From positions 73,268 through 137,267 of IMG/VR virus record IMGVR_UViG_3300023235_000012: 64,000 nucleotides of DNA. The stretch is one strand, 5' to 3'. The position numbers were made by a program, and so were the translations under genes. Below, piece after piece: positions 19,190 through 57,423 of the stretch. The notes beneath the pieces were generated by a model. That model saw only the letters and a list, made by a program, of their open reading frames with translations, made no database searches and had not been told where the DNA came from. How positions within the stretch are numbered: position 1 is the stretch's first letter; each line of letters opens with the position of its first letter. The DNA is from a virus.

Positions 19190-19322
19190 TTGTTGGGTCC
19201 CTTTAAGGTTTAAATTCTTCAACTGATCCATTACGGACAAATCTATTTCCATCTATACTGCCTCTTCGCTATAATCTAAAATATATCACCACATGATTCA
19301 CGTGCAGAACATTCTATCTTCT

Positions 19323-19871: not shown

Positions 19872-19903
19872 TTTTCTCCTTGTTAATCTTACAGAAATAA
19901 TCT

Positions 19904-21646: not shown

Positions 21647-21683
21647 TGTTTAATATACACTCAAATGATAGGCATGGTCAATA

Positions 21684-22097: not shown

Positions 22098-22124
22098 CAA
22101 TTGACTTCTCCAGAATCATTTAAT

Positions 22125-22466: not shown

Positions 22467-22467
22467 A

Positions 22468-22782: not shown

Positions 22783-22812
22783 GTGGTAGTCCCTTTCTCA
22801 ATATGTAATTAT

Positions 22813-22840
22813 ATTATAACACATCACGAGAAAAAGTCAA
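22813..22840 (-). promoter_or_regulatory. sigma70-type early promoter
   Basis: TTGACT-16-TATAAT with extended TG. Confidence 0.7.
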
Positions 22841-23355
22841 GTGATTAATGCTTTCACTAACTCTAGTTCTTTTCGTCCGCCTGATTCCCAGGCTATTTTC
22901 AACGTTGGATTCTCTTCACCCATAGCAGTTGAATAGATGAGTTCATTGTATTCCCACCATTCTTCAGCTCCATTTACATATTCAATAGCAGGACCATCTT
23001 CACGATGCCGTTCTCCATCTAACCACCATTCTTTGGACCCATTTACATAATATTCAACAGCCGGACCCTGTTCACGATGACGTTTTCCATTCACATACCA
23101 ATATTTATTTCCATATTTGGAATAAGCCGCAGGGCCATCTTCACGATGGAGTTGTCCATTCAGATACCATGCGTTGAATCCATCTGGTGAAATAACAGCC
23201 GGACCCTGTTCACGATGCCGTTCTCCATCTAACCACCATTCTTCATATCCATCTGGGCAAATAACAGCCGGGGCTTGTTCTCGATGGAGTTGTCCATTCA
23301 GACGCCATTCTTTAGATCCATCTTCGCATTCACTCATTCTTGATTCATCGATCAT
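22837..23355 (-). CDS. 23-aa repeat protein (5 units), array copy 5
   Basis: GxKEWxLNGxLHRExGPA units; MORN-variant/YwqK-like appearance. Confidence 0.85.
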   Translation of the reverse strand: MIDESRMSECEDGSKEWRLNGQLHREQAPAVICPDGYEEWWLDGERHREQGPAVISPDGFNAWYLNGQLHREDGPAAYSKYGNKYWYVNGKRHREQGPAVEYYVNGSKEWWLDGERHREDGPAIEYVNGAEEWWEYNELIYSTAMGEENPTLKIAWESGGRKELELVKALIT

Positions 23356-23867
23356 GATATCAAAGCTTTCACCAAATTGAATTCTTCTCGATTATCTGAT
23401 TCCCAAGCTTTTTTCAACGTGAGATTCTCTTCACCCATTTCAGTTGAATAGATGAGTTTATTGTATTCCCACCATTCTTTGGATCCATCTGAGTGTTCAA
23501 TTGCGGGTCCTTGTTCACGATGCCGTTCTCCATTCAGATACCATTCTTCAGCTCCATCTGGCCATATAACAGCCGGACCTTGTTCACGATGGAGTTGTCC
23601 ATCTAACCACCATGTTTTATATCCATCTGGCCATATAACAGCCGGACCTTGTTCACGATGGAGTTTTCCATTCAGATACCATGCTTTATATCCATCTGAG
23701 TCTATAATTGCCGGACCATCTTCATTATGGCGTTCTCCATCTTTCCACCATTCTTTAGTTCCATCTGGTGATATAACAGCAGGGCCTTGTTCACGATGGA
23801 GTTTTCCATTCAGATGCCATTCTTTAGATCCATCTTCAAGTTCACTCATTCTTGATTCATCGATCAT
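23352..23867 (-). CDS. 23-aa repeat protein (5 units), array copy 4
   Basis: true start MIDESR via ATGA overlap. Confidence 0.85.
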   Translation of the reverse strand: MIDESRMSELEDGSKEWHLNGKLHREQGPAVISPDGTKEWWKDGERHNEDGPAIIDSDGYKAWYLNGKLHREQGPAVIWPDGYKTWWLDGQLHREQGPAVIWPDGAEEWYLNGERHREQGPAIEHSDGSKEWWEYNKLIYSTEMGEENLTLKKAWESDNREEFNLVKALIS

Positions 23868-24706
23868 GATATCAAAGCTTTCACTATATTGAATTCTTCT
23901 CTTGAACCAGATTCCCAAGCTTTCTTCAAAATTGGATTCTCTTCACCCATTTCAGTTGAATAGATGAGTTCATTGTATTCCCACCATTCTTTGGATCCAT
24001 CTGAGTGTTCAATTGCGGGTCCTTGTTCACGGTGGAGTTGTCCATTTAACCACCATTCATTGGATCCATTTGATCGTATAACAGCTGGGCCTTGTTCACG
24101 ATGCCGTTCTCCATTCAGATACCATGCTTTATATCCATCTGGTGATATAACAGCAGGGCCTTGTTCACGATGGAGTTTTCCATTTAAGAACCATTCTTTG
24201 GATCCATTTGATCGTAAAATTGCCGGACCTTGTTCACGATGGAGTTGTCCATCTAACCACCATGTTTTATATCCATCTGGCCATATAACAGCAGGGCCAT
24301 CTTCACGATGCCGTTCTCCATCTAACCACCATGCTTTATATCCATCTGGCCATATAACAGCAGGGCCATCTTCACGATGCCGTTCTCCATCTAACCACCA
24401 TGCTTCAGCTCCATCTGGTGATATAACAGCAGGGCCTTGTTCACGATGGAGTTTTCCATTTAAGAACCATTCTTTGGATCCATTTGATCGTAAAATTGCC
24501 GGACCTTGTTCACGATGCCGTTCTCCATCTAACCACCATTCTTCATATCCATCTGGGCAAATAACAGCCGGGGCTTGTTCTCGATGGAGTTGTCCATTCA
24601 GACGCCATTCTTTAGATCCATCTGGGCAAATAACAGCCGGGGCTTGTTCTCGATGGAGTTTTCCATTCAGACGCCATTCTTTAGATCCATCTTCAAGTTC
24701 ACTCAT
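23864..24706 (-). CDS. 23-aa repeat protein (10 units), array copy 3
   Basis: 280 aa; first 6 codons split off by a 1-nt deletion. Confidence 0.85.
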   Translation of the reverse strand: MSELEDGSKEWRLNGKLHREQAPAVICPDGSKEWRLNGQLHREQAPAVICPDGYEEWWLDGERHREQGPAILRSNGSKEWFLNGKLHREQGPAVISPDGAEAWWLDGERHREDGPAVIWPDGYKAWWLDGERHREDGPAVIWPDGYKTWWLDGQLHREQGPAILRSNGSKEWFLNGKLHREQGPAVISPDGYKAWYLNGERHREQGPAVIRSNGSNEWWLNGQLHREQGPAIEHSDGSKEWWEYNELIYSTEMGEENPILKKAWESGSREEFNIVKALIS

Positions 24707-24719
24707 CTTGGTTCATTTG

Positions 24720-25304
24720 TCATGAGATCAAAGCTTTCACCATATTGAATTCTTCTCGATTACCTGATTCCCAAGCTTTTTTTAATATTGGATTCTCGTC
24801 ACCTATATCAGTTGAATAGATGAGTTCATTGTGTTCCCACCATTCTTTAGTTCCATCTGAATCTATAACAGCCGGACCTTGTTCACGATGCCGTTCTCCA
24901 TCTAACCACCATTCTTTGGATCCATTTGATCGTAAAATTGCCGGACCTTGTTCACGATGGAGTTTTCCATTTAAGAACCATTCTTTAGTTCCACCTGGTG
25001 ATATAACAGCCGGACCTTGTTCACGATGGAGTTTTCCATTTAAGAACCATGCTTCAGTTCCATCGGGCCAAATAATAGCCGGACCATCTTCACGATGGAG
25101 TTTTCCATTTAAGAACCATTCTTTGGATCCATCGGGCCAAATAATAGCCGGACCATCTTCACGATGGAGTTCTCCATTCAGACACCATTTTTTGGTTCCA
25201 TTTGGCCTTTCAACAGCTGGGCCTTGTTCACGATGCCGTTCTCCATTCAGACACCATTCTTTAGATCCATCTTCAAGTTCACTCATTCTTGGTTCATTTG
25301 TCAT
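24720..25304 (-). CDS. 23-aa repeat protein (6 units), array copy 2
   Basis: same N- and C-caps; ATGA overlap. Confidence 0.85.
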   Translation of the reverse strand: MTNEPRMSELEDGSKEWCLNGERHREQGPAVERPNGTKKWCLNGELHREDGPAIIWPDGSKEWFLNGKLHREDGPAIIWPDGTEAWFLNGKLHREQGPAVISPGGTKEWFLNGKLHREQGPAILRSNGSKEWWLDGERHREQGPAVIDSDGTKEWWEHNELIYSTDIGDENPILKKAWESGNREEFNMVKALIS

Positions 25305-25747
25305 GAGATCAAAGCTTTCACCATATTGAATTCTTCTCGATCACCTGATTCCCAGGCATTCTTCAATATTGGATTCTCTTCGCCTATATCAGTTGAATAG
25401 ATGAGTTCATTGTATTCATACCAATATTTATTTCCATATTTGGAATAAATCGCAGGACCATCTACTCTATGACGTTTTCCATTTAAGAACCATGCTTCAT
25501 ATCCATCGGGCCAAATAATAGCCGGACCTTGTTCACGATGCCGTTCTCCATTCAGATACCACTCTTTGGACCCAACTTGACCTTCATATGCAGGGTAATA
25601 TACTCTATGACGTTTTCCATTCAGATACCATTCTTTAGTTCCATTTGACCGTATAATTGCCGGACCATCTTCACGATGGCGTTCTCCATTCAGACGCCAT
25701 TTTTTGGTTCCATCTAGATATTCAGTCATTGTTGGTTCATCGGTCAT
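25301..25747 (-). CDS. 23-aa repeat protein (4 units), array copy 1
   Basis: same caps; first gene behind the promoter. Confidence 0.85.
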   Translation of the reverse strand: MTDEPTMTEYLDGTKKWRLNGERHREDGPAIIRSNGTKEWYLNGKRHRVYYPAYEGQVGSKEWYLNGERHREQGPAIIWPDGYEAWFLNGKRHRVDGPAIYSKYGNKYWYEYNELIYSTDIGEENPILKNAWESGDREEFNMVKALIS

Positions 25748-25753
25748 GTTATT

Positions 25754-25782
25754 AACATAACATGATAATTAAGGTGAGTCAA
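25754..25782 (-). promoter_or_regulatory. sigma70-type promoter of the repeat array
   Basis: TTGACT-17-TATGTT, 6 nt from ATG, no SD. Confidence 0.65.
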
Positions 25783-25789
25783 GCAGAAA

Positions 25790-26257
25790 TTATGATTTTA
25801 CCCAGAAATTTTCCCACGGAAAACATATCCATCGGTCTTCATCTTTTCGATTAATTTCTCTAGCATAGAAATCAGGATTTATTTTCTGTGCGGTATTGTA
25901 CCAAAGACTAGCAACTCTATAATTCATCGACTCTCTAATCATAGTTCCTTTTTCTTTTTTGAACTGACTTTCGATTTTTTCAAATGTGGAACCAGAATCT
26001 ATAATATCATCGAAGACTAGCACGTAGTCTTCTTTTGTCATGTCTAATAATGAATCTATTTTCAGTTTTTTGTGATCTCGCAAAGAACAATGAATGATGT
26101 CTACTGGACAATCAAACCATTGCGCAAGAAAAACAGCTGGAATAAGACCACCGCGACTTATTCCAAAGATATGATTCGGATGGAATTTTTTGAAAGTCAT
26201 CTGTCGAGCAATTTCAATCATATCACCTTCGAATTGTTCTTGTGAATAATGAATCAT
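25790..26257 (-). CDS. purine phosphoribosyltransferase (Gpt-like)
   Basis: GISRGGLIPA, VFDDIIDSGST, WICFPWE. Confidence 0.88.
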   Translation of the reverse strand: MIHYSQEQFEGDMIEIARQMTFKKFHPNHIFGISRGGLIPAVFLAQWFDCPVDIIHCSLRDHKKLKIDSLLDMTKEDYVLVFDDIIDSGSTFEKIESQFKKEKGTMIRESMNYRVASLWYNTAQKINPDFYAREINRKDEDRWICFPWENFWVKS

Positions 26258-42728: not shown

Positions 42729-43052
42729 TTAATAATTTTCTGCTCTTGCGATTTTTTCACGTGATCGACCATGTGCTGCGAAACCTAAGATAGCACCAAA
42801 CGAAAGATGGAATATGGCATTTCCTTCAGTTGTAAGTGGCTTCCATGCTTGATGATTAGCAAAACTGCTTAATGCGGCAATCTGAACAGAAGTGTCGTCA
42901 AGCTTCATCACTTGTTCGATAACTTCAGCTGGTGAGCTCTTCTCTGCAAAAATAATAGGCATGATGACAAAATCGGCTAGGCAGATTGTAAGATATATCG
43001 CCGCAGAAGCTGGTCTCCAAGCTCCTTTCCAAATTGGTTCTTTCTCTGTCAT
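42729..43052 (-). CDS. putative holin-like membrane protein
   Basis: WRP motif, hydrophobic helices, GAILG, basic tail; late promoter. Confidence 0.55.
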   Translation of the reverse strand: MTEKEPIWKGAWRPASAAIYLTICLADFVIMPIIFAEKSSPAEVIEQVMKLDDTSVQIAALSSFANHQAWKPLTTEGNAIFHLSFGAILGFAAHGRSREKIARAENY

Positions 43053-43057
43053 ACCGT

Positions 43058-43069
43058 TATTTATAAATA
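43058..43069. promoter_or_regulatory. palindromic bidirectional late promoter
   Basis: TATTTATAAATA gives TATAAATA on both strands between divergent genes. Confidence 0.75.
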
Positions 43070-43094: not shown

Positions 43095-44144
43095 ATGAGA
43101 ATTAAGGAAATTATTTCAGAAGAAACGGCGGCGAGCTTGAAAAGCAAGCTCGCCAAAGCAATCAAGGCTCTGCCTGATGATAACTCTTCTGTCAAGGCTC
43201 TACAGGAGATCGAGGATATTCTGCAGCACGTCAACGCTGGTGGAAAGATTGGGATCATCAAAGGACACCTTCGTACGCTCGATGATCCTGAAGTTCAGAA
43301 GGCTCAGAAAGAATTGGCTAGGTACCTTCTTTCAATTGAAATGACCCAAACAGATCGGAAAGAACTTTTCACCGAATGGAAGAACGATAACATCGTGAGA
43401 AGAGAGATTTTGCTGAAACCTGGCAAAACCTCTAACTTCAGTGATATTTTTAATCTTTATGATACCAACCCTGCTGCTAGAGAATTTATCGAAGATGTGA
43501 TGAACGTCTCGGCTTTGGGACAAGGGAAAGGTGAGTTTGGTCTCAGTGTCCTTAGTTCAAAAATCAACAAACAAGCAGGAAAAGGTGACCTCAATATTGA
43601 TGGAAAGGGAATTGAGGTTAAAACTGAGGATGGCGGAGCCGGGAGATTTACTGATCAAGAAGTTCGTCCTGGGCCAGGATTTGAACAAGCCGCTCGAGAT
43701 CTTGAAACTTTTGTTAGAGAAAATGGATTTAAATTTTCACCGTCTGGATTGAACCTAAATGATTCAATACGACTTGGTCAATCTTTGGAAGGTGAAATAG
43801 AAAAAGAATATTTTGAACATATTGAAAAAGTGATTTCCTTAATTTTTCATGGAACCGACATCAATCCTATTGTTCAAGCTATTCGTTCAGGTGATTCGGG
43901 TAGGGCAAAGCAAGCGTATGCACAATCTTCATTCAATTATTACTTTAATCAAAAGAAAGATGATTATGGAATTCTTTATATCAATTTACGAAAAAGCCCG
44001 ATGGAATTCACGTTCTTTAGAAACACTGTTGACTTAACTAAGGGTGGATTAAGACTGCACGCGAAGACAATCTATCTATCAAACGTGAAAGATCCAAGAC
44101 TCAATTATCCTCAGATTAGTATCACTCCAACATCTAGGAATTAA
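43095..44144 (+). CDS. putative PD-(D/E)xK nuclease-fold protein
   Basis: GKGEF…GDLNIDGKGIEVK; N-terminus MRIKEIISEE. Confidence 0.6.
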   Translation: MRIKEIISEETAASLKSKLAKAIKALPDDNSSVKALQEIEDILQHVNAGGKIGIIKGHLRTLDDPEVQKAQKELARYLLSIEMTQTDRKELFTEWKNDNIVRREILLKPGKTSNFSDIFNLYDTNPAAREFIEDVMNVSALGQGKGEFGLSVLSSKINKQAGKGDLNIDGKGIEVKTEDGGAGRFTDQEVRPGPGFEQAARDLETFVRENGFKFSPSGLNLNDSIRLGQSLEGEIEKEYFEHIEKVISLIFHGTDINPIVQAIRSGDSGRAKQAYAQSSFNYYFNQKKDDYGILYINLRKSPMEFTFFRNTVDLTKGGLRLHAKTIYLSNVKDPRLNYPQISITPTSRN

Positions 44145-44685
44145 CTTTTACGTTAGTTTTCTTGATGGCGTTCATATACTCGACGATTTCATCAAACTCC
44201 CATGGAGTAAAATTATGAGTGTCAACCCCTACATCTAAACGGAGTTTTCTGTTTCCGTTGTCCCATGTTTCTTCAGTATATTTTCCATGTGAATGGCCGT
44301 GTAGATGAAACGAATTATGGAAACTTTTATTCCACGAACCTATCGGATAATGAAAAAGAATCAAATCATATCCTTGGTGCTTTAACTCAAAATATTGATG
44401 AACTTGGTTCCATTCGGACAATGAGCGAACGTTATTGCGATCATGGTTTCCTGCAATTAAAATCTTTCTTCCATTAAGGGCTCGAAGGATTTCTTTCGTT
44501 ACATTTATATCACGGTAGAATGCAAAGTCACCGATATGATAAATCGTATCTTTGGGACTCACCACCTTGTTCCAATTTTCTATCATTGCCATATCCATGT
44601 CCGTGACAGAATCAAAAGGACGGGTGCAGAATCGTATAATCGATCGATGACCGAAATGATTGTCTGAGGTAAAATGTATTTTCAT
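44134..44685 (-). CDS. calcineurin-like metallophosphoesterase
   Basis: SDNHFGH, GDF, GNHD, HYP, HGHSH, DVGVD. Confidence 0.9.
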   Translation of the reverse strand: MKIHFTSDNHFGHRSIIRFCTRPFDSVTDMDMAMIENWNKVVSPKDTIYHIGDFAFYRDINVTKEILRALNGRKILIAGNHDRNNVRSLSEWNQVHQYFELKHQGYDLILFHYPIGSWNKSFHNSFHLHGHSHGKYTEETWDNGNRKLRLDVGVDTHNFTPWEFDEIVEYMNAIKKTNVKVNS

Positions 44686-44699
44686 AATAAATTATAACA

Positions 44700-46076
44700 T
44701 CAACTCCAATGATGGTCAAATTCTTTCTGAATAAATGGATACATCTCTAATCCATTTCTTTTGACGATTTTGTAAAACTCTTTAATGATGAATTTCGCCC
44801 TTGGATGTTTCTTTACCAATTCCCAGATCTTATCGAAGTGCTTGAGATCATCTGGGTTTGTTCCTTTACCGAACATTAATTCAGCCGCTTGTTTGGGATC
44901 TTGAATGGTTTCATATTCTTGATCATTAAGGTCTGGATGTTCCCATTTTTCCATATCTCTGACACCAGTGAGGTTTCCAGTGTATGGAACTTTCTTTCCT
45001 TTCTTTTTCTGCTGGAATTGCTTGATCATCCCCCGGCCCCTACCATACTCGTAACCTACTCTTGCTACGATATCACCGTTATCATCGAGTTTCAGATTTC
45101 CTGTGTTTTGGATGATAGCTTGTATCAAATTTCCTCTATGGGCACCAGAAACCTTGGAAGGAACTCCGCCCATCGCCCATTTCAACCATTTAGCATCTCC
45201 AGTGATGAAATCGACCTGTACTCTATTAGGTTCTTCACCAACGATAGGGATAGCTGCTTTTGCTAACTTCTTTACGTGCTGGAACTGAACGTTATCTTCG
45301 CCTAGAGATTTCATCAGATTATTGTAGAGATCGTCTAGATTGGTGTCTGGAGGGACAATGACATCAATATCACCCGAAACTGGTTTTAATCCTGCAGATC
45401 CAAGCATGTGATTCTTTAACCATTCAAACGGGATCCCGCTGAATTTTGCCACATTCTTCAACGTAGGTACAATATTTTCTTTCTTGATTCCAGTCGTTCC
45501 AGGGAAGGCCATGCCACCTTCGTTGAGGTCTCTTTTGTTTTCAAAATAGATAAAATAATCTACTGTTGCGTCATCTTTGATCTGATTTACTGTTTCTTTT
45601 GATTTTTCTACTGTTCTTTCTATTTTGTATTCTTGTTCAGGTGGAATTCCTCTCCCACCCGAAGAAATTCGATCTGCATTTTGTTTTAGAGCTTGTTCTA
45701 ATGAGACATCAACATAAAAAAGAACAGTGGTAAATCCACGTTTCTTTGCTGCTTCAAATCCTTTCAGGATAGGTCCTGGATTCTGTCCCACTTGATGTCG
45801 GACAAATGATTGACCTCTCAGAATAAATTCTGCTTGTCTTCGTTCTGCTTCTGCACGAGATTTTCCAGTCAATTTAGAATCAAATTCACCTAGTGATAAT
45901 TCTTGATTGATTAGATCAGTATCAATTGATTTTAATTTCCCAAGAAATTGATCTTGTACCCATGATTTACCGGCTCCTATTGGTCCCGCCATCATAATAA
46001 AAACAGGCCCTTCAATCTTTTTTATTTCATGTGGAGAAATTTTCTTTGATTCTACAAGCAACTCTTTAATCAACAT
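44700..46076 (-). CDS. zeta/AAA_33-like P-loop kinase fused to a Pol-beta nucleotidyltransferase
   Basis: GPIGAGKS…YVDVSLEQALKQNADR; LGSAG…SGDIDV…VQVDF; likely start MLIKELLVES. Confidence 0.75.
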   Translation of the reverse strand: MLIKELLVESKKISPHEIKKIEGPVFIMMAGPIGAGKSWVQDQFLGKLKSIDTDLINQELSLGEFDSKLTGKSRAEAERRQAEFILRGQSFVRHQVGQNPGPILKGFEAAKKRGFTTVLFYVDVSLEQALKQNADRISSGGRGIPPEQEYKIERTVEKSKETVNQIKDDATVDYFIYFENKRDLNEGGMAFPGTTGIKKENIVPTLKNVAKFSGIPFEWLKNHMLGSAGLKPVSGDIDVIVPPDTNLDDLYNNLMKSLGEDNVQFQHVKKLAKAAIPIVGEEPNRVQVDFITGDAKWLKWAMGGVPSKVSGAHRGNLIQAIIQNTGNLKLDDNGDIVARVGYEYGRGRGMIKQFQQKKKGKKVPYTGNLTGVRDMEKWEHPDLNDQEYETIQDPKQAAELMFGKGTNPDDLKHFDKIWELVKKHPRAKFIIKEFYKIVKRNGLEMYPFIQKEFDHHWS

Positions 46077-47643
46077 ATTTCTGAAGCTCCTTGAAGAATT
46101 TATGAACACCCGGCGGGGTCAATTTCTTAAACTCCTCTTCATTTTCAGATTCTATTGCTTGGAATGTCCTAGTGGCAGAAACATTTTCTGCCGAATCCAT
46201 ATCTCGCTTAACTTCGATGACCTCTACGTTCGGTGATCTCTTCAATTGATCCTTATAAGCATCTACTCGATCAGATCCAGCAATGACTGCGTTGATCATT
46301 CTTTTTGATTTGTTAAGAGCTGTCAAAATATTTCCAGTGCTGACTTCCATAACATCAACTCCAGGAAAAACTGATTGTACCATCTTTTTTCTCAATTCAA
46401 ATGGTACTTTAGTATCTTTTCCAGTGACCAATGCTACCACAACATTATTTGCTACATCTAATCCTTGTTGAATGGCACCAGCGTGTGCTGTTGTCAATAC
46501 TCTCATTTTTCCAATAAACAGAGCATTCTTATTTTCCGGCATCGATCTGACCACCAATTCTCGACCAGTCAAATAAACATCGTCTTGGATTTGATGTTGA
46601 TCTTTTTTTGGATGGTCAGGAAGAATGTCCTCATCAGCTTTATAAACTACCGCACTAAATTGTTTAAGTTTTTGGTTTATTGATCCATCTTTAAGTTTTC
46701 CAGCTATTTTCTTAGCGAGAGAATTTACTTCTGCCCAATATTGATTTTCTTGTTCTTCATCATCCGCTTTCCACTTCATCTTCTTCTGCATGCGAACTTC
46801 TTTATCATGCTGATCAGTCTGTAGGATCTTGAAGAAGTTTCCATCATCGCTTAATAAGACTACTCCTTCTTCTTTACCGCCGAATGGGGATTGAACAGAT
46901 CGGAACATTTCTTTGATAGCCTCAAATGTTTGAAGCCAATCCTGGAAGTCCATTTGATCCTTATGTTGTTCATAAGCATTTAATAGTTCTTCTGATTCAA
47001 TTCCTTTTCTAATCTCAGAATGACTATTAAGCTTTCCTTTGAATATTTGAGGTGGTGTCATCATAGATAGCGCTGCTGCGTATTCATCAACCCGGTCTTG
47101 ATTGAATCCTTGTGGAGCGGTTCGGATCATCCCACCTTCTATCACTGCTTTCGAAGGAGCGTAAGCCAGAAGGACCATTGCATGATATTTTTCATAGTCT
47201 CTAGTGGTCGTCGGCTTGTTCATAATAAACTCAACGAACATCTCTGTCTCTTCTGGAATCATCTTGAGATTTTTATGATTTTCTTCCAGATGATCATGAA
47301 CCAAAGCGTATTGGCTAACAGAAGTCGATTTTGTCTTGATCTTTTCTCGATCAATGGTTTCAAAATCCTCTGGGAACATGATCCGGTTCTTATAAGCTAC
47401 TACCCAGTTTTTACTGTAGTCATTTGGATCATAAGGTTGATTGTTTCTCCAAAGTGTTAATTTTACGCCATCGAATTTTTGTGTGACGGTGACGTCTAAT
47501 GACAATAATTTTTGGATTTTTGCAGGAACAGGATTTTTCTTAGAGTCAGCAACTGCCTTGTCGACATTGGTGATACTTATGTCCAACATGTCGCCGCCGG
47601 CTTCTCTAAGCTGCAGGCTCTCTGTTAATTCTCTAATCTTCAT
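46066..47643 (-). CDS. RNA-ligase-like domain fused to a cytidylyltransferase-like (HUP) domain
   Basis: QKFDG, FVEF, EGVVL, FFKI; GKMRVLTTAH, AGSDRV, VSAT. Confidence 0.7.
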   Translation of the reverse strand: MKIRELTESLQLREAGGDMLDISITNVDKAVADSKKNPVPAKIQKLLSLDVTVTQKFDGVKLTLWRNNQPYDPNDYSKNWVVAYKNRIMFPEDFETIDREKIKTKSTSVSQYALVHDHLEENHKNLKMIPEETEMFVEFIMNKPTTTRDYEKYHAMVLLAYAPSKAVIEGGMIRTAPQGFNQDRVDEYAAALSMMTPPQIFKGKLNSHSEIRKGIESEELLNAYEQHKDQMDFQDWLQTFEAIKEMFRSVQSPFGGKEEGVVLLSDDGNFFKILQTDQHDKEVRMQKKMKWKADDEEQENQYWAEVNSLAKKIAGKLKDGSINQKLKQFSAVVYKADEDILPDHPKKDQHQIQDDVYLTGRELVVRSMPENKNALFIGKMRVLTTAHAGAIQQGLDVANNVVVALVTGKDTKVPFELRKKMVQSVFPGVDVMEVSTGNILTALNKSKRMINAVIAGSDRVDAYKDQLKRSPNVEVIEVKRDMDSAENVSATRTFQAIESENEEEFKKLTPPGVHKFFKELQKYVD

Positions 47644-47645
47644 TC

Positions 47646-49172
47646 TTATCCCTTAATTTCGTCTGAATCGGTTCCGGCAGAACGCAGGCGTTGATATGCT
47701 TCACCTTCTTTACCATAATAGATAAAGAGGATTTTTTGAAGAACTTTTTCTGGAAGTTTCGTCTCTGGAAACTTCTGACTGAATCTGTCTAGCGCGGCGA
47801 CTTTGATGTCTTTGTCAATTTCCCAACGATCTCTTTCTAGAGCTTGTGCTACTTTATATTTGTTTATTTCATCTGGACTTGAAAGCTGCAAAGCTTCTTC
47901 TGGTCGGAATCCCCAGAGTCTGCGAATAAATTCATCTCTTAAATCTTTAACAGACTGAGGATCGTCTCGATATTCTTCAACCAAATCCAACAGACCAACA
48001 AAAGATCTGAATTGTTTTATCTCCTGAGTAGATGGTTGGGATCCAAATAATTTTTCGAACATTTCTACTGGACGATTGATATATCCAGAAGTAGCAGGAT
48101 CCATTGCTTTGTAGGTCTTTTTGCCACCTACTGTAAAATGTGACCCATCAGGAAGTTTTTGTGCTTGCATTTTGTTACGTAAGCCATAAAGAACAGAGAA
48201 GGTTAATTCGCTGACGTCTTTCCCTTCTGCTGCTTTTGGAATTTTTGGAATTGATTTTTTGATTTCTTTCTCTAACTCGGTCTTTTTCTTTTTAAGATCC
48301 TTCAATTCTTTGCTTATCTCTTTTACCTTACCTTTAATTTCTGGTTCGGGTTTTATCTTGTTATCAATAACAAATTTCTCTTTTTCTTCAAAGTCAGTCG
48401 AAATTTCTTCAAGCTCTTTGGCTAATGCTTCTACTTTCTTTGGATCGACAACGGTTGAAGCTGGAGTTAATTCTACCGAGTCTTTCACCTTTCCTAGAAC
48501 ATTAGCAACCGACTGTAATAGGAATTTATGAAATACTCCTTTAATACCTGATTCAATATCTGCCCAATCACTTGAGTGACTAAATTTTGCCCATTCACTC
48601 GGTTTATTGTCTTCGAATTCACTTGCCTCAAAATCAACCTGTCCAAGGACAGTTCCTCTTTCGTCAGTGTAATCAAATACTGCATTGATTTGTTCACCAA
48701 TAGCAGAGGCTGCTTTCTTATTGTTACCTACATAGATCACTTTATCAGTTATGTTTTTTCCTTCAATTCCTTTTAGAAAATCCCAAAGATCGTTAATAAC
48801 ATCTTTTGGTACAGAAACATCAATGTCGCCTACCTTAGGCTTGTGTTTAACATAAAGTTTATCTTCTATGTCAGGATCAAAGAAGCTTTCAGATGAGCCG
48901 TTGAAAGCATGTCCAGAAGTGATAACTCTGAAGTCCGCCCAAATTGGTGTACCTGTCTGCTTTTCAAAGGCTTTGTTTAAATTATCAAACGCCGCTACGA
49001 AAGCGTCACGGACGTTAGAGCGGCCATGCTTCGTCAAGTCCATTTTTTGCGCGTATGCTGGCTCACCTTTCCAGAGCATAATATTTCCATCACTATCAAT
49101 TGCTCTGGAGTTGCCACCTTCAAACATCTTTTCTTTTTTCGGTTCAATTTTGAAGAGTTCATATAATCGCAT
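47646..49172 (-). CDS. Pol-beta superfamily nucleotidyltransferase
   Basis: NGSS…VGDIDV…QVDFE…IKGVFHK. Confidence 0.7.
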   Translation of the reverse strand: MRLYELFKIEPKKEKMFEGGNSRAIDSDGNIMLWKGEPAYAQKMDLTKHGRSNVRDAFVAAFDNLNKAFEKQTGTPIWADFRVITSGHAFNGSSESFFDPDIEDKLYVKHKPKVGDIDVSVPKDVINDLWDFLKGIEGKNITDKVIYVGNNKKAASAIGEQINAVFDYTDERGTVLGQVDFEASEFEDNKPSEWAKFSHSSDWADIESGIKGVFHKFLLQSVANVLGKVKDSVELTPASTVVDPKKVEALAKELEEISTDFEEKEKFVIDNKIKPEPEIKGKVKEISKELKDLKKKKTELEKEIKKSIPKIPKAAEGKDVSELTFSVLYGLRNKMQAQKLPDGSHFTVGGKKTYKAMDPATSGYINRPVEMFEKLFGSQPSTQEIKQFRSFVGLLDLVEEYRDDPQSVKDLRDEFIRRLWGFRPEEALQLSSPDEINKYKVAQALERDRWEIDKDIKVAALDRFSQKFPETKLPEKVLQKILFIYYGKEGEAYQRLRSAGTDSDEIKG

Positions 49173-49200: not shown

Positions 49201-49971
49201 TTAGGAATTAAATCCTTCTGTAAAAGAAAGGGCCGATTTCAATTCTTGTGGTGCCACAATATTAATCACTTGTTTCAGACAAGGATCTTGAAAAAGATTT
49301 GGGAGTGCGAGAGTTTGTGCGAATTTCAAAGTTTCTGCTACGATTTTAGAAAGTTCAGATAATTCTCTGGCTATCGTCTCAGTTATTTCATTAACCGCGT
49401 TAGCGATAGCGGCGACCGCTGGTCCGATGACTGAAGCAATCGCAGCAACAACAGCAGTGATTCCTTCTCCTATTTTTTCAATGATAAGTGCCACTGCATC
49501 GAAAACTGTTGTCACTATTGGCTCTAATGCACCAGTCACTGAACCAAATAATCCACTTATCGCATCACATGGATTTGTCGGCGCTATACCTAAAGTCTCT
49601 TGCCTTGTCTTTTCCATTGATGAAAAGCTCATGTTCTTCACTAAATTGGCGGAACCCATCGATCCTGCTTTTCCAGAATCTGCGCCTTGGATACCAACCA
49701 TATGAGTCTGTAACGATAACAAACCACCTTGAGCGTCATCTAATTGTTGAGCAGTGTCACTAAAAAATTCTGGATCTACACCTACGTCAATCAATTCCTG
49801 TGGATCATGTAACACGTCATCGGGATTATTCCAACTGGCAAAGTAATCTTTTGCTAAAGTTAAGCTCGACATCGAGTCTGCCAACGTTTTCATTCCTATA
49901 GGTTGGAAACCTTGAGAATGAAGAACATTGTGAATATCAGGAATGTTACTCGGTGATGTAATTGCAACCAT
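49201..49971 (-). CDS. hypothetical late (baseplate-associated) protein
   Basis: 256 aa in the PAAR operon. Confidence 0.6.
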   Translation of the reverse strand: MVAITSPSNIPDIHNVLHSQGFQPIGMKTLADSMSSLTLAKDYFASWNNPDDVLHDPQELIDVGVDPEFFSDTAQQLDDAQGGLLSLQTHMVGIQGADSGKAGSMGSANLVKNMSFSSMEKTRQETLGIAPTNPCDAISGLFGSVTGALEPIVTTVFDAVALIIEKIGEGITAVVAAIASVIGPAVAAIANAVNEITETIARELSELSKIVAETLKFAQTLALPNLFQDPCLKQVINIVAPQELKSALSFTEGFNS

Positions 49972-49979
49972 TTTCTACC

Positions 49980-50702
49980 TCAGGCATAATGTAATGTAAG
50001 ACCGCCACTATAATCGTTATTGATCATCGTCAAGACTTGTCTTCGTTGTGATCCGCTAGCTCCGTTGAAACTGACATGAAGCCAGATGTTATTTCCGTGT
50101 TCAAGAATAAACTGATCAAACAGGAGGTTATCTCGACAAAAATTTGCTCTTCTCAAATATTCTTGATTTGAGATCCCAGGCCATTGAACGTCCGCTGCCA
50201 TTCCTCTTTCATGTTGACTTTTACCACCTGTTCCAGTTCTGAATCCAGAGTTAATCCTGAATCCTGGAAAAGCAGACCACAATGGCTCTAAGCAATTTTC
50301 ACATAAAGACTTTAGATTACATATCATTTCAAGATCGGTGAAACCATGCTGTGCTTGAATTGAATGAGAGAAGAATGCCCCAAGTGATAGATCTCTGACA
50401 GTGAAATTTCGAGATAACGAAAAACTATAATCAACTTCCGTAAAATCACCACAAGAAGTAATCTCTGGTGAGATTGAAGATGTAGGCTCAGTTAGATCCG
50501 TCGGGCCAGAACTCGTAGTTGGTGGGTTATTCAATGGATACGATTCAGGAATCTGGTCTTTGGTAACCTCTTCATCAAATGGTGCTTCTCTTCCTGCGAC
50601 GGAAATCAGCTTTGCTGCTGCTTGTGGAGAGTAACTATTGATAACTCCTACTGGAATATTTCCAGTATATGATGTCGATGAACAAGATGGATTGATTGAC
50701 AT
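49980..50702 (-). CDS. peptidase M15A-domain protein
   Basis: INSGFR, SQHERGMAAD, WLHVS; likely start MSINP. Confidence 0.8.
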   Translation of the reverse strand: MSINPSCSSTSYTGNIPVGVINSYSPQAAAKLISVAGREAPFDEEVTKDQIPESYPLNNPPTTSSGPTDLTEPTSSISPEITSCGDFTEVDYSFSLSRNFTVRDLSLGAFFSHSIQAQHGFTDLEMICNLKSLCENCLEPLWSAFPGFRINSGFRTGTGGKSQHERGMAADVQWPGISNQEYLRRANFCRDNLLFDQFILEHGNNIWLHVSFNGASGSQRRQVLTMINNDYSGGLTLHYA

Positions 50703-50703
50703 T

Positions 50704-50988
50704 TTACCCCGCGAAGACGTTTCCTGATCCTGTTGCGCAGAATGACCCGCATGCAATAGGATCGCCTATTCTAGCTAATTGAAGACCGTTTACCATAACG
50801 ATAGGCGATCCTGCCGCCAGATTTGAGTCATGACACGGAGGTGGACAGCAATGGGTCACCCAGTGATCTCCTAGTCGGTGTGCTGGGATTCCATTGACAA
50901 AAACATTCGAAGATCCTTGGTCGTTTGGGCGTGGTGGCCAACAATCGTGGCCGCTGCAAATATCTCCTAGTCTGACTACTGCTGGAAT
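50704..50988 (-). CDS. PAAR spike-tip protein (gp5.4-like) with ATT start
   Basis: Absent from the track; 94 aa (I)PAVVRLGDICSGH…VFVNGIPAHRLGD…ARIGDPIACGS…VFAG; SD AGGAGG. Confidence 0.9.
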   Translation of the reverse strand: MPAVVRLGDICSGHDCWPPRPNDQGSSNVFVNGIPAHRLGDHWVTHCCPPPCHDSNLAAGSPIVMVNGLQLARIGDPIACGSFCATGSGNVFAG

Positions 50989-51939: not shown

Positions 51940-52007
51940 AATAACTCCTTTTGTCTTTGTTCATACTATTTATGGATTTCACCATAGACTCAAAGACTCG
52001 AAGATCG

Positions 52008-52277
52008 TCAGATAAATTTCAAAAGGTCTTTCACATACAAACCAATGACACCAATTTTTTTAAGCTGATTTACTGATAATTCTTTAGATGGCATTGGTTC
52101 ACCAACTATAAACCGACGACGCCATTTAATGTGTTTGTTAAGAGCTTGTTCAGGGGATTCACCTGCATTAGGTTGTACCATTTCCAGGGTTGGATCTGAT
52201 ACATCATTACAAACCCAACGTAGGTTCTTATCGGTCTTGTTTATTCTAGCTTGAGCTCTGCGCTGTTGTCTGTTCAT
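52008..52277 (-). CDS. hypothetical protein
   Basis: 89 aa starting MNRQQRR. Confidence 0.6.
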   Translation of the reverse strand: MNRQQRRAQARINKTDKNLRWVCNDVSDPTLEMVQPNAGESPEQALNKHIKWRRRFIVGEPMPSKELSVNQLKKIGVIGLYVKDLLKFI

Positions 52278-52474
52278 TATTTCTATCCATTTTCGCTTGA
52301 CATTTTATCTTTTTATGTTATACTACACTTAACAGTAAGGAGTAAGTAAATGTTTGTTTTGATCGGTGAAGGTTACAATGTTGTTCAAAAAAGAATTGGT
52401 GATTCTTTTGAAAACGTATCTTTTCTTCTGTGCGGCGGATATTTTAGCAATCACTTCTAGAGTGTTCTTCTTGT

Positions 52475-54358
52475 TTACTGTTTCCAGAGCCATTTTTTCT
52501 TTCCACAATCATATATCCTATGATAACCTAATTTAACCATCATCTCTTTCTCAGTTCCCTCATCAATTCCAAACTTTTTCTTGATCTCTTTTTTCGAAAA
52601 GCGCATTGGATGAAACCGATCTAGGAAATTAGGAGAAACATAATAATGTCCAAAATCACTTTCAGACTGTAATTTAAATCCTAATTTTTCATACATTTCA
52701 CCAGAGAACCATCGATTATCTGAATATGAAACTATTTGTTCTGGACAATGGGATCTAATAAAAAATTTGAACATCTTATCGGCAAGTCCTGGAAAATTTC
52801 TACCATCAGTACAGAATCTCTTCAATTCACATTTTGCACCATTCTGTCTAATTGACTTACCAAAAATCATCACTCCTATTAATTCATTATTAAGATAAGC
52901 TCCAATATTAGTTCCTCCAAAAGGGGAACTTCCCTGGATATGATAATTATTCAGGAAATTTCTAACAGTCTCGAACGGAATCTCATTTAATATTGTTTTT
53001 CTTGCACCGATTGTTTCTGTAGATAATCTTAAAAAATTTCCAATTATCCCAAAAACGATATCAGGATTTTTTGTAAATTCATCTTCAAAAATAGTAAGTA
53101 ATCGAATTCCTTTGTTTTTACAAAGATCATATTTCTTTCGATGATAATCTTTTGCTTGTATTCGAGCATCAGAATGCCAATATAAACCACAGAATTCAAT
53201 TGCTAGATTATATTCGGGCATAAAGATATCTATTTCTAACGGAGGGATAATATTTCTCTTATTGAATAATGCTTGAATTTGATTTTCTTCAAGGAATCTA
53301 GAAATTAAAATTTCTGGTACTGATCTAAAACCGGGCATATATTGTGAATCATAGTCAATCGCATATCTTCTTACTGTTTCATGATGAATATTTAGATCAA
53401 GCGCTGCTTCTCCTAATGTCTTTTTTAACAAAAAATTATTGAATAGATCTTTATCTCTTAAAATCAATCTAGTTTTTTTTTCAATCACTAATTCATTAGC
53501 ACTTCTAACCTCATTTTCTTTTAAAAATTCTTTAAACTCTTCTGATTGAAAATAAGATTCTACTCCATATTTTTTAAAAATAGCCTTCTTGGCTTTGATT
53601 AATATTTCTTTAGATTGAAACGGATATCTAACTCCAGTTGATTCTTCTAATGAATCTCTCGTGCTTTTTCGAATATCTTCATTCTGTAAAGCAAAATCTA
53701 CTCCATATTTTTCATTCATAGCTTTTTTGTGAGCTAGTCTTGCTTTTTCAGTATTAAACCCCAATATTCCATCATGATTTTTTCGATTTGTGTGTAACAT
53801 CTTTTCAAGTATATCATCATTCTGTGAAGGAAAATCTACTCCATATTTCTTTTGATTAGTCTGTTTTCTCTTTTTCACGACGACTGGATTATTTGATGGA
53901 TTTTTAAAACCTGTCCTTTTTTCGTATGTTTTAGAGCGTTGAATGATTGATTCTTCAGAATGTCCGGCCGACTGAGCTTTTCTTAATTCATCTTTTTCAG
54001 CCTCGGACATTTTTTCAAATCTAGCACGAGTTCCTTCAGATATTTTCTCCCGTAAAACTGGATCTTTGTTTCTTTCACTACGAAGAATCGACTGTCTTTG
54101 CATGTTACATTCACATATCTTCCCTTTACCACAAGAATTAGAAAATCCTTTAGACCAAGATATAAATCTCTTCTTACGATTCGATATTTCACATATTGGA
54201 TCGAATGTGTTAAGATGGCACCAAAATGCTTCGGTTATTGATTTAGCGTGTGGGAAATGTTCGTGAAGAAACAATAACAATTCTGCATTTTCTGGTTTCT
54301 TTAATCTCTGTCCAATAAGCTTCTCTGGACCGATCAAAATTTTCTCGAAATTTCTCAT
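52475..54358 (-). CDS. Hef-like homing endonuclease (KYGV repeats, Vsr/DUF559 nuclease, GNAT/Mom-like C-terminus)
   Basis: repeated KKYGVDFPSQ; EIDIFMPEYNLAIEFCGLYWHS; LKRFC…VSYSDNRW…YEKLGF. Confidence 0.75.
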   Translation of the reverse strand: MRNFEKILIGPEKLIGQRLKKPENAELLLFLHEHFPHAKSITEAFWCHLNTFDPICEISNRKKRFISWSKGFSNSCGKGKICECNMQRQSILRSERNKDPVLREKISEGTRARFEKMSEAEKDELRKAQSAGHSEESIIQRSKTYEKRTGFKNPSNNPVVVKKRKQTNQKKYGVDFPSQNDDILEKMLHTNRKNHDGILGFNTEKARLAHKKAMNEKYGVDFALQNEDIRKSTRDSLEESTGVRYPFQSKEILIKAKKAIFKKYGVESYFQSEEFKEFLKENEVRSANELVIEKKTRLILRDKDLFNNFLLKKTLGEAALDLNIHHETVRRYAIDYDSQYMPGFRSVPEILISRFLEENQIQALFNKRNIIPPLEIDIFMPEYNLAIEFCGLYWHSDARIQAKDYHRKKYDLCKNKGIRLLTIFEDEFTKNPDIVFGIIGNFLRLSTETIGARKTILNEIPFETVRNFLNNYHIQGSSPFGGTNIGAYLNNELIGVMIFGKSIRQNGAKCELKRFCTDGRNFPGLADKMFKFFIRSHCPEQIVSYSDNRWFSGEMYEKLGFKLQSESDFGHYYVSPNFLDRFHPMRFSKKEIKKKFGIDEGTEKEMMVKLGYHRIYDCGKKKWLWKQ

Positions 54359-54406: not shown

Positions 54407-54435
54407 GAAAAACCGGGGACAAGCCCCGGTTTTTC
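54407..54435. terminator. intrinsic terminator after the major capsid gene
   Basis: GAAAAACCGGGG-acaag-CCCCGGTTTTTC. Confidence 0.9.
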
Positions 54436-54458: not shown

Positions 54459-55637
54459 TTAGAAGAAGCGTAGATTAGAAACCGCAACCTTACCTAGGTA
54501 GTCAGCCGCATTACCAAGCGATGAAGCCTGATCCTTTAGTTCCAAATAACCGTAACGTGTTAAGAAGGTCGTAACCATCTCACCAGTATTCGGATCCATA
54601 ACTGAACCTGAACTCATTAGAGGGATATAAGGACAGTAGAATGCAGCTGCATCTGACTCTGATGGTCCTTTGTAACCAATAAGAACGTCAACGTTGTCAC
54701 CAGCATAAGTGTCGGTGTAAACGCGCATGGTACCATTAAGAGTACCAATGAACTTGGTGTTGGTTGGAGCTTCAAACGTGCCTTCTGTTGTACGTGCGAA
54801 AGCGGAAGCACCTGCGGACTGTAGAACAGTAACGACTAGTGGATTGACAACGCACCAGTTACCTGCGCCACGACGTGTACGCTGGGAGATACGGTTAGCC
54901 TGTTGGTTGATCTGGACAGCTAATGCTGCGTGTTCATCAACCACTGAAGTAGCAACACCTGAGACAGCGGACTGGTCAAATGTAACCGTTGCTGTACCAG
55001 CTAGCGTACGTAGATTGTCAAGGATCTCTTGATCGATCTCTGCAGTGATTTCCTGTGCCAGAACGGCCATCAATTCTGCTTCGATGTCGATACCATGCTG
55101 TGCCTGTGCGTCTTGCATTGCTTCGACGGTCCAGGTAGCTGATAGTCTACGGGATTCTGCCTCAACAGTTTCCTTTAGAACACGAATGTTCATCTTGTTA
55201 CCCATACGACCTTCAAGAGCAGATGTATTTGCAGAACTGGCCGCTGCTGGATTTTCATTACCGGAATAATGACGTTCGATGTTGAATGGGCTTAGTGCTT
55301 CATCACCAGCAACCGCGCCGGTTCCTGCTGCTGGAACAGTATCAGAATATTGCATACGAATAGTATGAATCTGACCAACTGGTCCAGTCATTGGTTGAAC
55401 ACCAATAATTTCGTTAGCGATAACTGTTGGCATCACACGACGGATAACAGGCAAGATAACCTTATTAAGCGCTGCAACATTACCCGCAGTAGTTGCACCA
55501 GCGGATGCAGCTTCTGCAAGCCATTTGCGTTGGTTTTCAAGAACAAGTCCAAGAGAATCTTTACGCTGGCCAGTTAGACCCTCGGTTAGCTTTTCTTTGA
55601 CTACGCTCCACTTCTTATTTTCTAGTAGCATACTCAT
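54459..55637 (-). CDS. major capsid protein (gp23-like)
   Basis: GVQPMTGP, SRRLSATWT, EITAEIDQE, TRRGAGN, FYCPYIPL, TRYG. Confidence 0.97.
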   Translation of the reverse strand: MSMLLENKKWSVVKEKLTEGLTGQRKDSLGLVLENQRKWLAEAASAGATTAGNVAALNKVILPVIRRVMPTVIANEIIGVQPMTGPVGQIHTIRMQYSDTVPAAGTGAVAGDEALSPFNIERHYSGNENPAAASSANTSALEGRMGNKMNIRVLKETVEAESRRLSATWTVEAMQDAQAQHGIDIEAELMAVLAQEITAEIDQEILDNLRTLAGTATVTFDQSAVSGVATSVVDEHAALAVQINQQANRISQRTRRGAGNWCVVNPLVVTVLQSAGASAFARTTEGTFEAPTNTKFIGTLNGTMRVYTDTYAGDNVDVLIGYKGPSESDAAAFYCPYIPLMSSGSVMDPNTGEMVTTFLTRYGYLELKDQASSLGNAADYLGKVAVSNLRFF

Positions 55638-56781: not shown

Positions 56782-57423
56782 CTACCATTTGAGTGATTTA
56801 ATAAATTCAGTCATGGTTGACTCGATGTATTTTTCAGCTTTGACGTCTCCGTCGTGTCTAGCTGAAAAGACATCTAAGGTATTCTGCCCCGTGAGACTTC
56901 CAAAAATACTTTCGTAAATTGGTGTCGGGTAGGCGTCCGGAGCAGATGGTTGCATTACTAGATCAACTGTGATAATTTCAAACTCAGATACATCACCCGT
57001 TGCTTCGTTAACATTTCCTGATCCCCTGGAACTGACACCCAATTTAACACCACTCTTCAATAATGCTGTTGCAATATTTCCACATGGCGTTGGTAGAATA
57101 GTCAAACGACCCATACCGTTTGGTCCATTCATCCACATCTTATCAATTATATGGCTTATGCGTTCAAGATTAATGGTGAGCGAATCCGGATGATCCAACT
57201 CACCAGTAACCGAAAAACCACCATCAATCTTAGATTGGATGTCTTTAACCGCCGAACCAATTTCTTGTCCTGGATAAACTCTACCATTATGGTTTTGTTT
57301 TTCTCCCTGAATAAAAATTCCCTCCATTCGATATTTCTTTCCATCAGTGGAACTATCGTCTTCTTCAACGATAATACCTGCCTGTACTGAGGAGAGAACT
57401 TCTTGGAGTAGCGGCTTCGTCAT
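56782..57423 (-). CDS. prohead protease (gp21-like)
   Basis: NHNGRVY, GELDHP, GVSSRGSG, DLVMQPSAP. Confidence 0.95.
   Translation of the reverse strand: MTKPLLQEVLSSVQAGIIVEEDDSSTDGKKYRMEGIFIQGEKQNHNGRVYPGQEIGSAVKDIQSKIDGGFSVTGELDHPDSLTINLERISHIIDKMWMNGPNGMGRLTILPTPCGNIATALLKSGVKLGVSSRGSGNVNEATGDVSEFEIITVDLVMQPSAPDAYPTPIYESIFGSLTGQNTLDVFSARHDGDVKAEKYIESTMTEFIKSLKW

Follow-up and report, generated by a model that had tools for sequence, protein, structure and literature searches.

A tightly packed kinase, phosphoesterase, nucleotidyltransferase and ligase gene group in a large phage as a candidate module for polynucleotide break repair

What would a phage mend, and in which nucleic acid, with two nucleotidyltransferases (NTases), a ligase fused to a cytidylyltransferase-like domain, a kinase and a phosphoesterase encoded side by side? 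This question is raised by four genes, here named A to D, which lie in a stretch of 64,000 nucleotides (nt) from the IMG/VR virus record IMGVR_UViG_3300023235_000012 (positions 73,268 to 137,267), referred to as the window. It makes up the 3' portion of a record of 137 kb with an estimated completeness of 37%, from which it follows that the phage is large. An open reading frame (ORF) check of the window revealed that the four genes are co-directional, on the minus strand, and tightly packed, with 2 nt between A and B, an overlap of 11 nt between B and C, and a gap of 14 nt between C and D (Table 1). The explanation favoured here, with a confidence somewhat better than even, is that A to D constitute a module for polynucleotide break repair in which ends are healed, filled and sealed, the likeliest substrate being RNA cut by host ribonucleases, above all tRNA.

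According to this explanation, the kinase half of C would phosphorylate 5'-OH ends and D would remove 2',3'-cyclic or 3'-phosphates, after which the two family X-like NTases (A and the second half of C) would restore the one or few nucleotides lost from the 3'-OH end, and the Rnl2-like domain of B would self-adenylylate on K56 and seal the break. The HUP domain of B would carry out a further nucleotidyl transfer onto a phosphate, by which it might make or recycle the nucleotide donor of the ligase, or mark the repaired end. The proteins A, B and C would be made with a capsid-targeting leader, loaded into the prohead and trimmed by the T4-type prohead protease of the phage, which would also cut C into a kinase and an NTase. 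Injected with the DNA, they would make repair available from the first minute of infection, while D would probably be made inside the cell. We infer these activities, the substrate, the cleavage and the packaging from the domain identities, the conserved catalytic residues, the conserved linkage, the gene fusions and the leaders that the proteins have in common.

The sealing step is assigned to gene B, for which an AlphaFold model built from 38 relatives reached a mean pLDDT of 90.7. In its ligase-type domain, the residues K56, D58 and G59 of motif I are conserved in at least 90% of the 38 relatives, and E134, E138, E259, G260 and K272, which by our own reading would represent ligase motifs III, IV and V, are invariant. 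Foldseek matched the model to T4 RNA ligase 2 (2hvr, E 1.4e-5; 2hvq, E 3e-5) over 367-384 columns, with a different relative orientation of the domains (rmsd, root-mean-square deviation, 16-23). As the HUP domain filled the second look with the structure-comparison tool VIA, it is Foldseek that supplies the assignment of the ligase fold. Ten of the 38 relatives match the Pfam family RNA_ligase (PF09414) at E up to 0.01, the best of them at 2.5e-8. The ligase domain is followed by helices (residues 296-315, 322-334 and 349-367 by DSSP, with pLDDT above 90), and no OB fold is predicted; this all-helical part may correspond to the helical C-terminal domain of Rnl2. With hhalign, the B family aligned to the small RNA ligase encoded by the same phage in the motif IV region (probability 72%), to its Rnl5-like ligase with a probability of 2%, and to the sequence P0113 over a motif IV-like stretch only, and the PDB sequence-only search with the ligase domain gave nothing beyond E 0.29.

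The second half of B is a HUP domain. In the model, residues 370-525 superpose on PPAT and NMNAT (VIA Z 16-17, rmsd about 2.6 over 145 residues), the profile of the family matches PPAT chains at E 2.5e-6, the domain itself scores 23.5 bits with Citrate_ly_lig (cut-off 20.9), and 28 of the 38 relatives match CTP_transf_like. Its first motif reads T-T-A-H, a variant of (T/H)xGH in which Gly is replaced by Ala, and its second motif, of the ISxT type, reads V-S-A-T-R. The residues H387 (motif 1), G456, D458, R459, R480 and S489 (motif 2) are invariant. This domain may act on the end of a nucleic acid or on the cofactor of the ligase.

The filling step would be shared by two related NTases, since A contains the motifs GS, GDID and QVDF, as does the C-terminal half of C. 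Among 31 relatives of A, the residues G92-S93, G115, D116, D118, Q178, D180 and E182 are invariant, and of these G92-S93, D116, D118 and D180 are the predicted catalytic residues. Across 40 relatives of the second domain of C, the matching G/S and the residues D41, D43 and D94 show no or almost no variation. By hhalign, the two families are homologous over 265 columns (probability 99%, E 5e-18), and the mature N-terminus of the A family is a conserved GGN. The family of the C NTase comprises 262 representative relatives at E up to 1e-3, most of them stand-alone proteins of approximately 280 residues.

The predicted model of A (pLDDT 91.5) finds its best solved matches in the polymerases Pol lambda, mu and beta (Foldseek, E 3e-3), and giant-virus family X polymerases appear as weak matches in BFVD. 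When compared with family X polymerases by VIA, approximately 180 residues align with Z 7.5-8 and an rmsd of 3.9, values that are middling for this tool; for this reason, the family X-like palm and thumb predicted for A are taken as a resemblance and not as membership. Neither A nor C matched the Pfam Pol X domains, and the fingers or 8-kDa domain was not identified in A. Neither protein matched RlaP (PF10127) at E up to 0.1 or the head domain of CCA-adding enzymes and poly(A) polymerases (PF01743), and a PDB sequence-only search with the NTase family gave nothing. The ESM Atlas returned for A only unnamed viral NTase clusters, with clusters of DUF6267 and DNA_pol_B_thumb as leads, and no usable match for C. 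A Lys/Glu-rich helical hairpin inserted at residues 242-310 of A is found only in this phage and in its closest relative, L004; it dominated the wide VIA search with the model of A, which was therefore uninformative on the catalytic core. A prediction of an A-B complex, run without controls, scored 0.00 against a mark of 0.32 and counts as evidence neither way.

The healing step is attributed to the kinase half of C and to D. In 12 kinase sequences, G31, G36 and K37 of the Walker A motif, D52, D54 and the lid residue R136 are invariant, and T96 is present in at least 90%. The profile of these sequences matches the 171-residue PDB chains 4gp7, 4jst, 4gp6 and 4mde at E 2.6e-8 to 1.4e-6, while PezT and T4 Pnk follow at E 0.0064 and 0.0095. 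We take 4gp7, 4jst and 4gp6 to be the same protein as 4mde. The latter is the polynucleotide kinase of Clostridium thermocellum (CthPnk), in which K21, D38 and R41 are described as essential in the available text of that study (PMC3902929). Following the roles given there, and assuming a numbering offset of one residue, K37 aligns with the P-loop Lys of CthPnk, D54 with its general-base Asp, found in the sequence S-S-D, and T96 with the Thr that anchors the phosphodiester, and the lid arginines (R-x-x-R) are kept. The kinase half of C is thus likely, by its profile matches, to be a polynucleotide kinase. Regarding D, all metal-binding motifs (D8, H10, D53, N80, H81, H112, H131 and H133) are invariant, and the protein corresponds to phrog_547 (E 4.6e-53) and matches 1xm7, the uncharacterised Aquifex protein aq_1665, at E 1.8e-32, so that its sequence identifies it as a binuclear metallophosphoesterase of the aq_1665 type. 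These results bear out an initial annotation of this DNA in which two Pol-beta NTase domains, a KxDG ligase domain, a HUP cytidylyltransferase-like domain and a neighbouring metallophosphoesterase had been recognised.

The association of these genes is not peculiar to the window. In 48 IMG/VR viral contigs encoding a relative of B, which were searched with the window proteins, the N-terminal domain of A was found within 10 kb of B in 33 loci, almost always upstream of it and in the same orientation; 12 loci have the kinase and 17 have D. Fifteen loci lack A, and in nine of them the contig breaks off within 700 nt upstream of B. When five whole records were searched for A, two encoded it elsewhere (20 and 65 kb away) and three did not. 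The other recurrent neighbours are ordinary T4-like genes, such as those for terminase, gp15, DnaB, topoisomerase, endonuclease VII and DNA ligase. The relatives of B fall into at least 106 sequence clusters and occur in 21 records of isolate phages (15 of Campylobacter and six of Vibrio), all of which also encode relatives of A, as do two Xanthomonas phages. In Campylobacter phage CP220 (locus L002, record positions 12570-26015), radical SAM genes, QueE-like ones among them, precede the B relative gp026 by a few kb, and gp026 adjoins a gene annotated as encoding a virion structural protein, with the A relative 65 kb away.

Natural gene fusions, as read from the sequences, confirm the partnership. 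The kinase is fused to B in L032 (656 residues) and in P0065, an RNA_ligase domain to the kinase and the NTase in P0128, and an RNA_ligase domain to the NTase in P0140. In P0162 the NTase is joined to DNA_ligase_A_M, an ATP-dependent DNA ligase domain, in P0188 to DUF6267 and a HUP domain (CTP_transf_like), and in P0237 to DUF2608 and DUF6267. Together with the profile and fold matches, this conserved synteny and these fusions support the comparison with heal-and-seal systems made in the initial annotation.

The same fusions bear on a reading in which the module would serve small-molecule metabolism or signalling, through synthesis of a cofactor like NAD, CoA or FAD or through decoy nucleotides directed against cyclic-nucleotide defences. 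This reading, judged very improbable, finds its arguments in the HUP domain, which is closest to PPAT and NMNAT, in the Pfam placement of the kinase within Zeta_toxin, a family of small-molecule kinases, and in the leader described below, which is also carried by an Acb1-like protein. Instead, both the folds (ligase and Pol X-like) and the fusions to RNA or DNA ligase domains indicate polynucleotides. The presence of a separate HUP NTase gene approximately 5 kb before the window makes NAD synthesis by B, which the initial annotation had listed among its options, less likely, and no support for it emerged. The same holds for the CD-NTase or decoy-signal option, given that the NTases resemble family X polymerases and that no cGAS-like, DncV-like or CCA-type match was among the matches listed for the profile and fold searches with A and C, an absence that is inconclusive and does not exclude the family.

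A much closer contest is that between RNA and DNA. DNA is a serious rival substrate, with RNA the likelier of the two. If DNA were the substrate, which is rated as rather unlikely, the same enzymes would constitute an injected or early end-processing kit for nicks and gaps in the phage genome, comparable in its logic to LigD or to the PNKP-Pol X-ligase combination, and would either mend nicks, gaps and breaks that host nucleases have introduced or join the ends of the genome. In LigD, a polymerase for filling in likewise stands together with a 3'-end phosphoesterase and a ligase, and fusions of NTase and ligase also exist in the phage family; however, the LigD polymerase is primase-like (archaeo-eukaryotic primase, AEP) and not of the Pol-beta type, its ligase belongs to the DNA ligases that contain an OB domain, and LigD is not known to have a kinase or a HUP domain. 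The polymerases that head the list of matches of A and the DNA ligase domain of P0162 speak for DNA, as does the crystallisation of CthPnk with DNA oligonucleotides reported in the available text (PMC3902929). Furthermore, the record already holds canonical RNA repair genes, namely a true RlaP NTase (PF10127, E 8e-18; G000:C1:38278-38823) and two RNA ligases of PF09414 (C1:33071-33634 and C1:4377-4874), one of 393 residues with an N-terminal extension and a minimal one of 229, whereas a search of the 137-kb fragment, a record only 37% complete, revealed no DNA ligase of PF01068. On the other side, a separate ATP-dependent DNA ligase is encoded nearby in eight of the 48 related loci. RNA is favoured because the ligase domain of B is of the RNA-ligase type, with its matches to the RNA-ligase family and T4 Rnl2 and without an OB fold, because two fusions involve RNA_ligase-type domains, and because a CCA-adding enzyme carries the same leader. 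The initial annotation was nonetheless right that the sequence does not reveal the substrate, and the present analysis does not separate RNA from DNA.

The leader just mentioned is a short N-terminal stretch. A strict pattern (Met, K/R/L, I/L, K/R/Y, Glu, L/I), chosen after seeing the data, opens six of the 181 non-overlapping ORFs of the whole record, where composition would predict 0.011; a seventh bearer, the CCA-adding enzyme, falls outside the strict set, and two looser bearers exist besides. The seven bearers are A, B, C, a gene encoding a protein of 349 residues, an ART-PolyVal ADP-ribosyltransferase, the CCA-adding enzyme (385 residues, E 1.1e-31) and an Acb1-like 2H phosphodiesterase (165 residues). 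Three leader genes are adjacent to one another, encoding a DUF5661 protein of 665 residues, a protein of 240 residues without family and the ADP-ribosyltransferase, of 582 residues.

Comparison among relatives shows, at the level of aligned protein starts, that the leaders are add-ons ending at a fixed point. The leader of A comprises residues 1-19 and ends in M-F-E just before GGN. The start is readable in 32 relatives of A, of which 20 begin directly with M-GGN and nine have a leader ending with Glu immediately before GGN. The relatives of B either start at a conserved M-LDISI block or carry a leader; by our own count, 33 of the 38 with a readable start have a leader of at least eight residues, and in 32 of these 33 a hydrophobic-x-Glu site lies two to seven residues before the conserved block. 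A leader-type cleavage site is also found inside C, at the junction between kinase and NTase, where L-N-E is followed by G-G-M-A-F-P-G; the stand-alone NTase P0108, which is 77% identical to the second half of C, has a leader ending with Glu and then the same GGMAFPG. The junction between kinase and B in L032 contains a similar leader-like stretch.

This organization recalls capsid targeting in T4, where short N-terminal leaders with a site ending in Glu are likewise found on unrelated proteins, the internal proteins and Alt, which are processed by the gp21 protease. As described in the available text of the corresponding studies, the first 10 residues of internal protein III are sufficient for targeting to the capsid and its processing depends on residues 8 and 10 (PMC9026906), cleavage takes place after Glu, and packaging follows the same route for the ADP-ribosyltransferase Alt (PMC9026906, PMC3012670). 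The phage analysed here also encodes a T4-type protease and a major capsid protein, the latter with an L-A-E-A site at residue 42, and an ADP-ribosyltransferase is among the leader bearers, as Alt is in T4. In addition, the relative of the C NTase in phage PA5oct is annotated as a structural protein found by electrospray ionisation tandem mass spectrometry (ESI-MS/MS). On the basis of the T4 precedent, the capsid-protein site and the PA5oct annotation, it is proposed that A, B and C are probably delivered in the virion. The virion delivery suggested in the initial annotation has therefore gained support, from leaders with protease-type sites, a prohead protease gene 8 kb away and a virion-detected homologue, and stops short of proof. 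In contrast to T4, the cargo here would consist of repair enzymes, a CCA-adding enzyme and an Acb1-like phosphodiesterase. The available parts of the packaging literature name internal proteins, ADP-ribosyltransferases and Macro, NADAR, Nudix and 2H domains, and not ligases, kinases or NTases.

A wider possibility, which is regarded as doubtful, is that a whole leader-loaded counter-defence set is injected, so that tRNA or the incoming genome is repaired before expression begins, with the HUP domain performing a new chemistry on the repaired end. As judged from the leaders, this set would include the ADP-ribosyltransferase, the CCA-adding enzyme, the Acb1-like phosphodiesterase, the polynucleotide kinase, the two Pol X-like NTases and the ligase-HUP protein. 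The HUP domain could then nucleotidylate a terminal or junction phosphate, either feeding the ligase or shielding the junction from being cut again; in the latter case, it would parallel the methylation by Hen1 in the bacterial Pnkp system.

The HUP domain, which goes unexplained under the repair scheme, also leaves room for an offensive or marking system, in which the ends of host or phage RNAs would be tailed, capped or adenylylated to redirect or inactivate them. In such a system, considered improbable, the HUP domain would add a nucleotide-linked cap to a 5'-phosphate and the NTases would add tails. HUP enzymes such as PPAT and NMNAT are known to link a nucleoside monophosphate (NMP) to a phosphate monoester, and the ADP-ribosyltransferase with the same leader is a typical host-takeover enzyme. 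Nevertheless, the constant partners are a 5'-kinase, a phosphoesterase and a ligase that retains its motif I lysine, a combination that is the signature of healing and sealing, and nothing found at the locus points to a cap.

Several observations weigh against the favoured repair of RNA breaks. B itself has no match to PF09414 at E up to 0.1, and the classic heal-and-seal scheme offers no step for its HUP domain. The second NTase of C was found in none of 50 related loci searched. The nearest solved folds of A are DNA polymerases, and a second RNA repair set looks redundant beside two RNA ligases, RlaP and the CCA-adding enzyme. The label of polynucleotide kinase is not secure because the acceptor-binding Arg (R41 in CthPnk, R38 in T4 Pnk) is replaced by Thr or Asn in the 12 kinase sequences, and because Pfam assigns C to Zeta_toxin (PF06414; 31.1 bits against a cut-off of 22.3, over residues 98-193 only). 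The zeta-like kinase of the initial annotation thus keeps this Pfam score, although polynucleotide kinase, with CthPnk at the head of the matches, is the stronger label. Regarding packaging, D has no leader, as is seen from its DxH motif, already at residues 8-10; the A relatives that lack one include the closest, that of L004; and the Campylobacter relatives of B have only five residues before the domain. Consequently, packaging would not be a fixed property of the module.

When the favoured break-repair module is compared with known systems, T4 offers a phage counterpart. T4 Pnkp together with Rnl is a heal-and-seal system that repairs tRNA cut by the anticodon nuclease PrrC. It is likewise a phage set of kinase, phosphatase and ligase (Rnl1 and Rnl2), with Rnl2 being the nearest to B in fold. 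However, the T4 phosphatase is of the HAD type, T4 has neither a fused HUP domain nor a Pol X-like partner, and its repair enzymes are early proteins that are not known to be packaged. Among bacteria, Pnkp/Hen1 is a known example of end healing and sealing, according to the available text of two studies (PMC1920235, PMC3902929). The C. thermocellum system has the same three types of activity, its CthPnk chains are the closest to the phage kinase profile, and the ligase encoded beside one of the relatives weakly matches Pfam PNKP_ligase. The differences are that the phage activities are encoded in separate genes, that the phosphoesterase is of the aq_1665 type and not a Pnkp phosphatase, that the ligase, of the Rnl2-like type, has a HUP domain attached to it, that one or two Pol X-like NTases are added, and that the acceptor Arg of CthPnk is missing.

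A further parallel is provided by RlaP, which is also a Pol-beta-fold NTase genomically tied to an RNA ligase. In the available text of the respective studies, RlaP adds one or two NMPs to the 3'-OH ends of RNA, with a preference for damaged RNA (PMC12776372), and is predicted to restore lost nucleotides before ligation (PMC7824862). The A family differs from RlaP in its conserved GGN N-terminus and its Pol X-like thumb, and the true RlaP of this phage is a different gene.

With respect to the genomic context, T4-type head genes, for Gp23 and the prohead protease, lie 5-10 kb upstream of the module on the same strand. The description of the module as a late operon was not supported: the T4 late-promoter word TATAAATA occurs four times in the window, against 3.3 expected, and not once upstream of A to D. 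Scans of the window for sigma-70 promoters and terminators were at background level. A strong bidirectional terminator-like hairpin (54407-54435, 12 pairs, seven of them GC) is located directly after the major capsid gene. Between this gene and the module, a minus-strand ORF of 627 codons (52475-54358) encodes a DUF7487 protein with weak Mom-like and restriction-endonuclease-like matches. The GC content drops to 0.316 in 52001-54000. This ORF may be a mobile or homing-type insertion. Directly upstream of A (49201-50756, minus strand) lie genes for a DUF7217 protein with weak tape-measure-like matches and for a protein of 258 residues with a C-terminal peptidase M15 or endolysin-like domain. 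Both proteins look virion-associated and also adjoin the module in L004.

On the other side of the module, the leader-bearing gene for the protein of 349 residues (43095-44144, plus strand) is convergent with D, their 3' ends overlapping by 11 nt. One TATAAATA word lies approximately 26 nt upstream of it (43062-43069), and the mirror copy with which it is paired would serve the divergent gene 42729-43052. The family of this protein is very large and unusually conserved, with 371 clusters at E up to 1e-3, and the members listed are 49-56% identical and mostly of approximately 410-420 residues, with no Pfam domain. The protein has no PDB sequence match and is unrelated to the NTase family by hhalign. 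No tRNA genes were found in the window, and no nucleotide-level relative of it among 50,697 phage records. Six DNA sequencing runs labelled as salt lake metagenome contain the window or part of it, with no RNA run listed.

Table 1. Location of the module genes, their domains and associated features (window coordinates unless otherwise stated).
Feature	Position	Strand	Description
Gene A	47646-49172	minus	508 aa (amino acids); Pol-beta-fold NTase; phrog_19290 match
A insert	48447-48243	minus	residues 242-310; 69-residue Lys/Glu-rich helical hairpin between NTase core and C-terminal part
Gene B	46066-47643	minus	525 aa; ligase and HUP fusion
B leader	47590-47643	minus	residues 1-18; contains LRE
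B ligase-type adenylyltransferase domain	46759-47589	minus	residues ~19-295; motif I K56-F-D-G
B all-helical linker domain	46543-46758	minus	residues 296-367
B HUP domain (HIGH-class)	46066-46536 (incl. stop codon)	minus	residues 370-525
Gene C	ORF 44700-46109; protein-database start ATG at 46076	minus	458 aa; kinase and NTase
C P-loop kinase	45519-46076	minus	residues 1-186 from ATG 46076; N-terminal leader with LVE site
C second NTase	44700-45518 (incl. stop codon)	minus	residues 187-458; GGN-type, paralogue of A
Gene D	44134-44685	minus	183 aa; metallophosphoesterase
Sigma-70-like site ahead of D	44719-44691	minus	11/12 positions, with TG; consensus match only
Major capsid protein Gp23	54459-55637	minus	
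Prohead protease	56782-57423	minus	Peptidase_S77
Further leader bearers	G000:C1:18118-22786 and C1:27215-28372 (outside window); window 5429-5926		

Each domain of the module belongs to a known superfamily and the repair logic is also known. No description of the module was found in the literature on RNA repair, on packaged or ejected RNA ligases, on RlaP in combination with RNA ligases and on the virion proteomics of Firehammervirus, and an earlier mention in comparative work on RNA repair is possible; for DUF6267, no mention was found in the literature. The fusion of a ligase with a HUP domain, the GGN NTase family and the leader-mediated loading of repair enzymes appear to be undescribed in the literature searched.

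RNA-cutting defences, including anticodon nucleases and many abortive-infection toxins, are widespread, and the known phage answer to them is the kinase-phosphatase and ligase of T4. The module would represent a second, common phage answer, with a ligase joined to a PPAT-like enzyme, a minimal Pol X-like NTase family and a probable delivery in the virion as its new features. The occurrence of A and B in cultured Campylobacter and Vibrio phages makes the biochemistry directly testable. If packaging proves true, repair enzymes would join the list of injected anti-defence cargo, and the leader would offer a handle for finding more of it.

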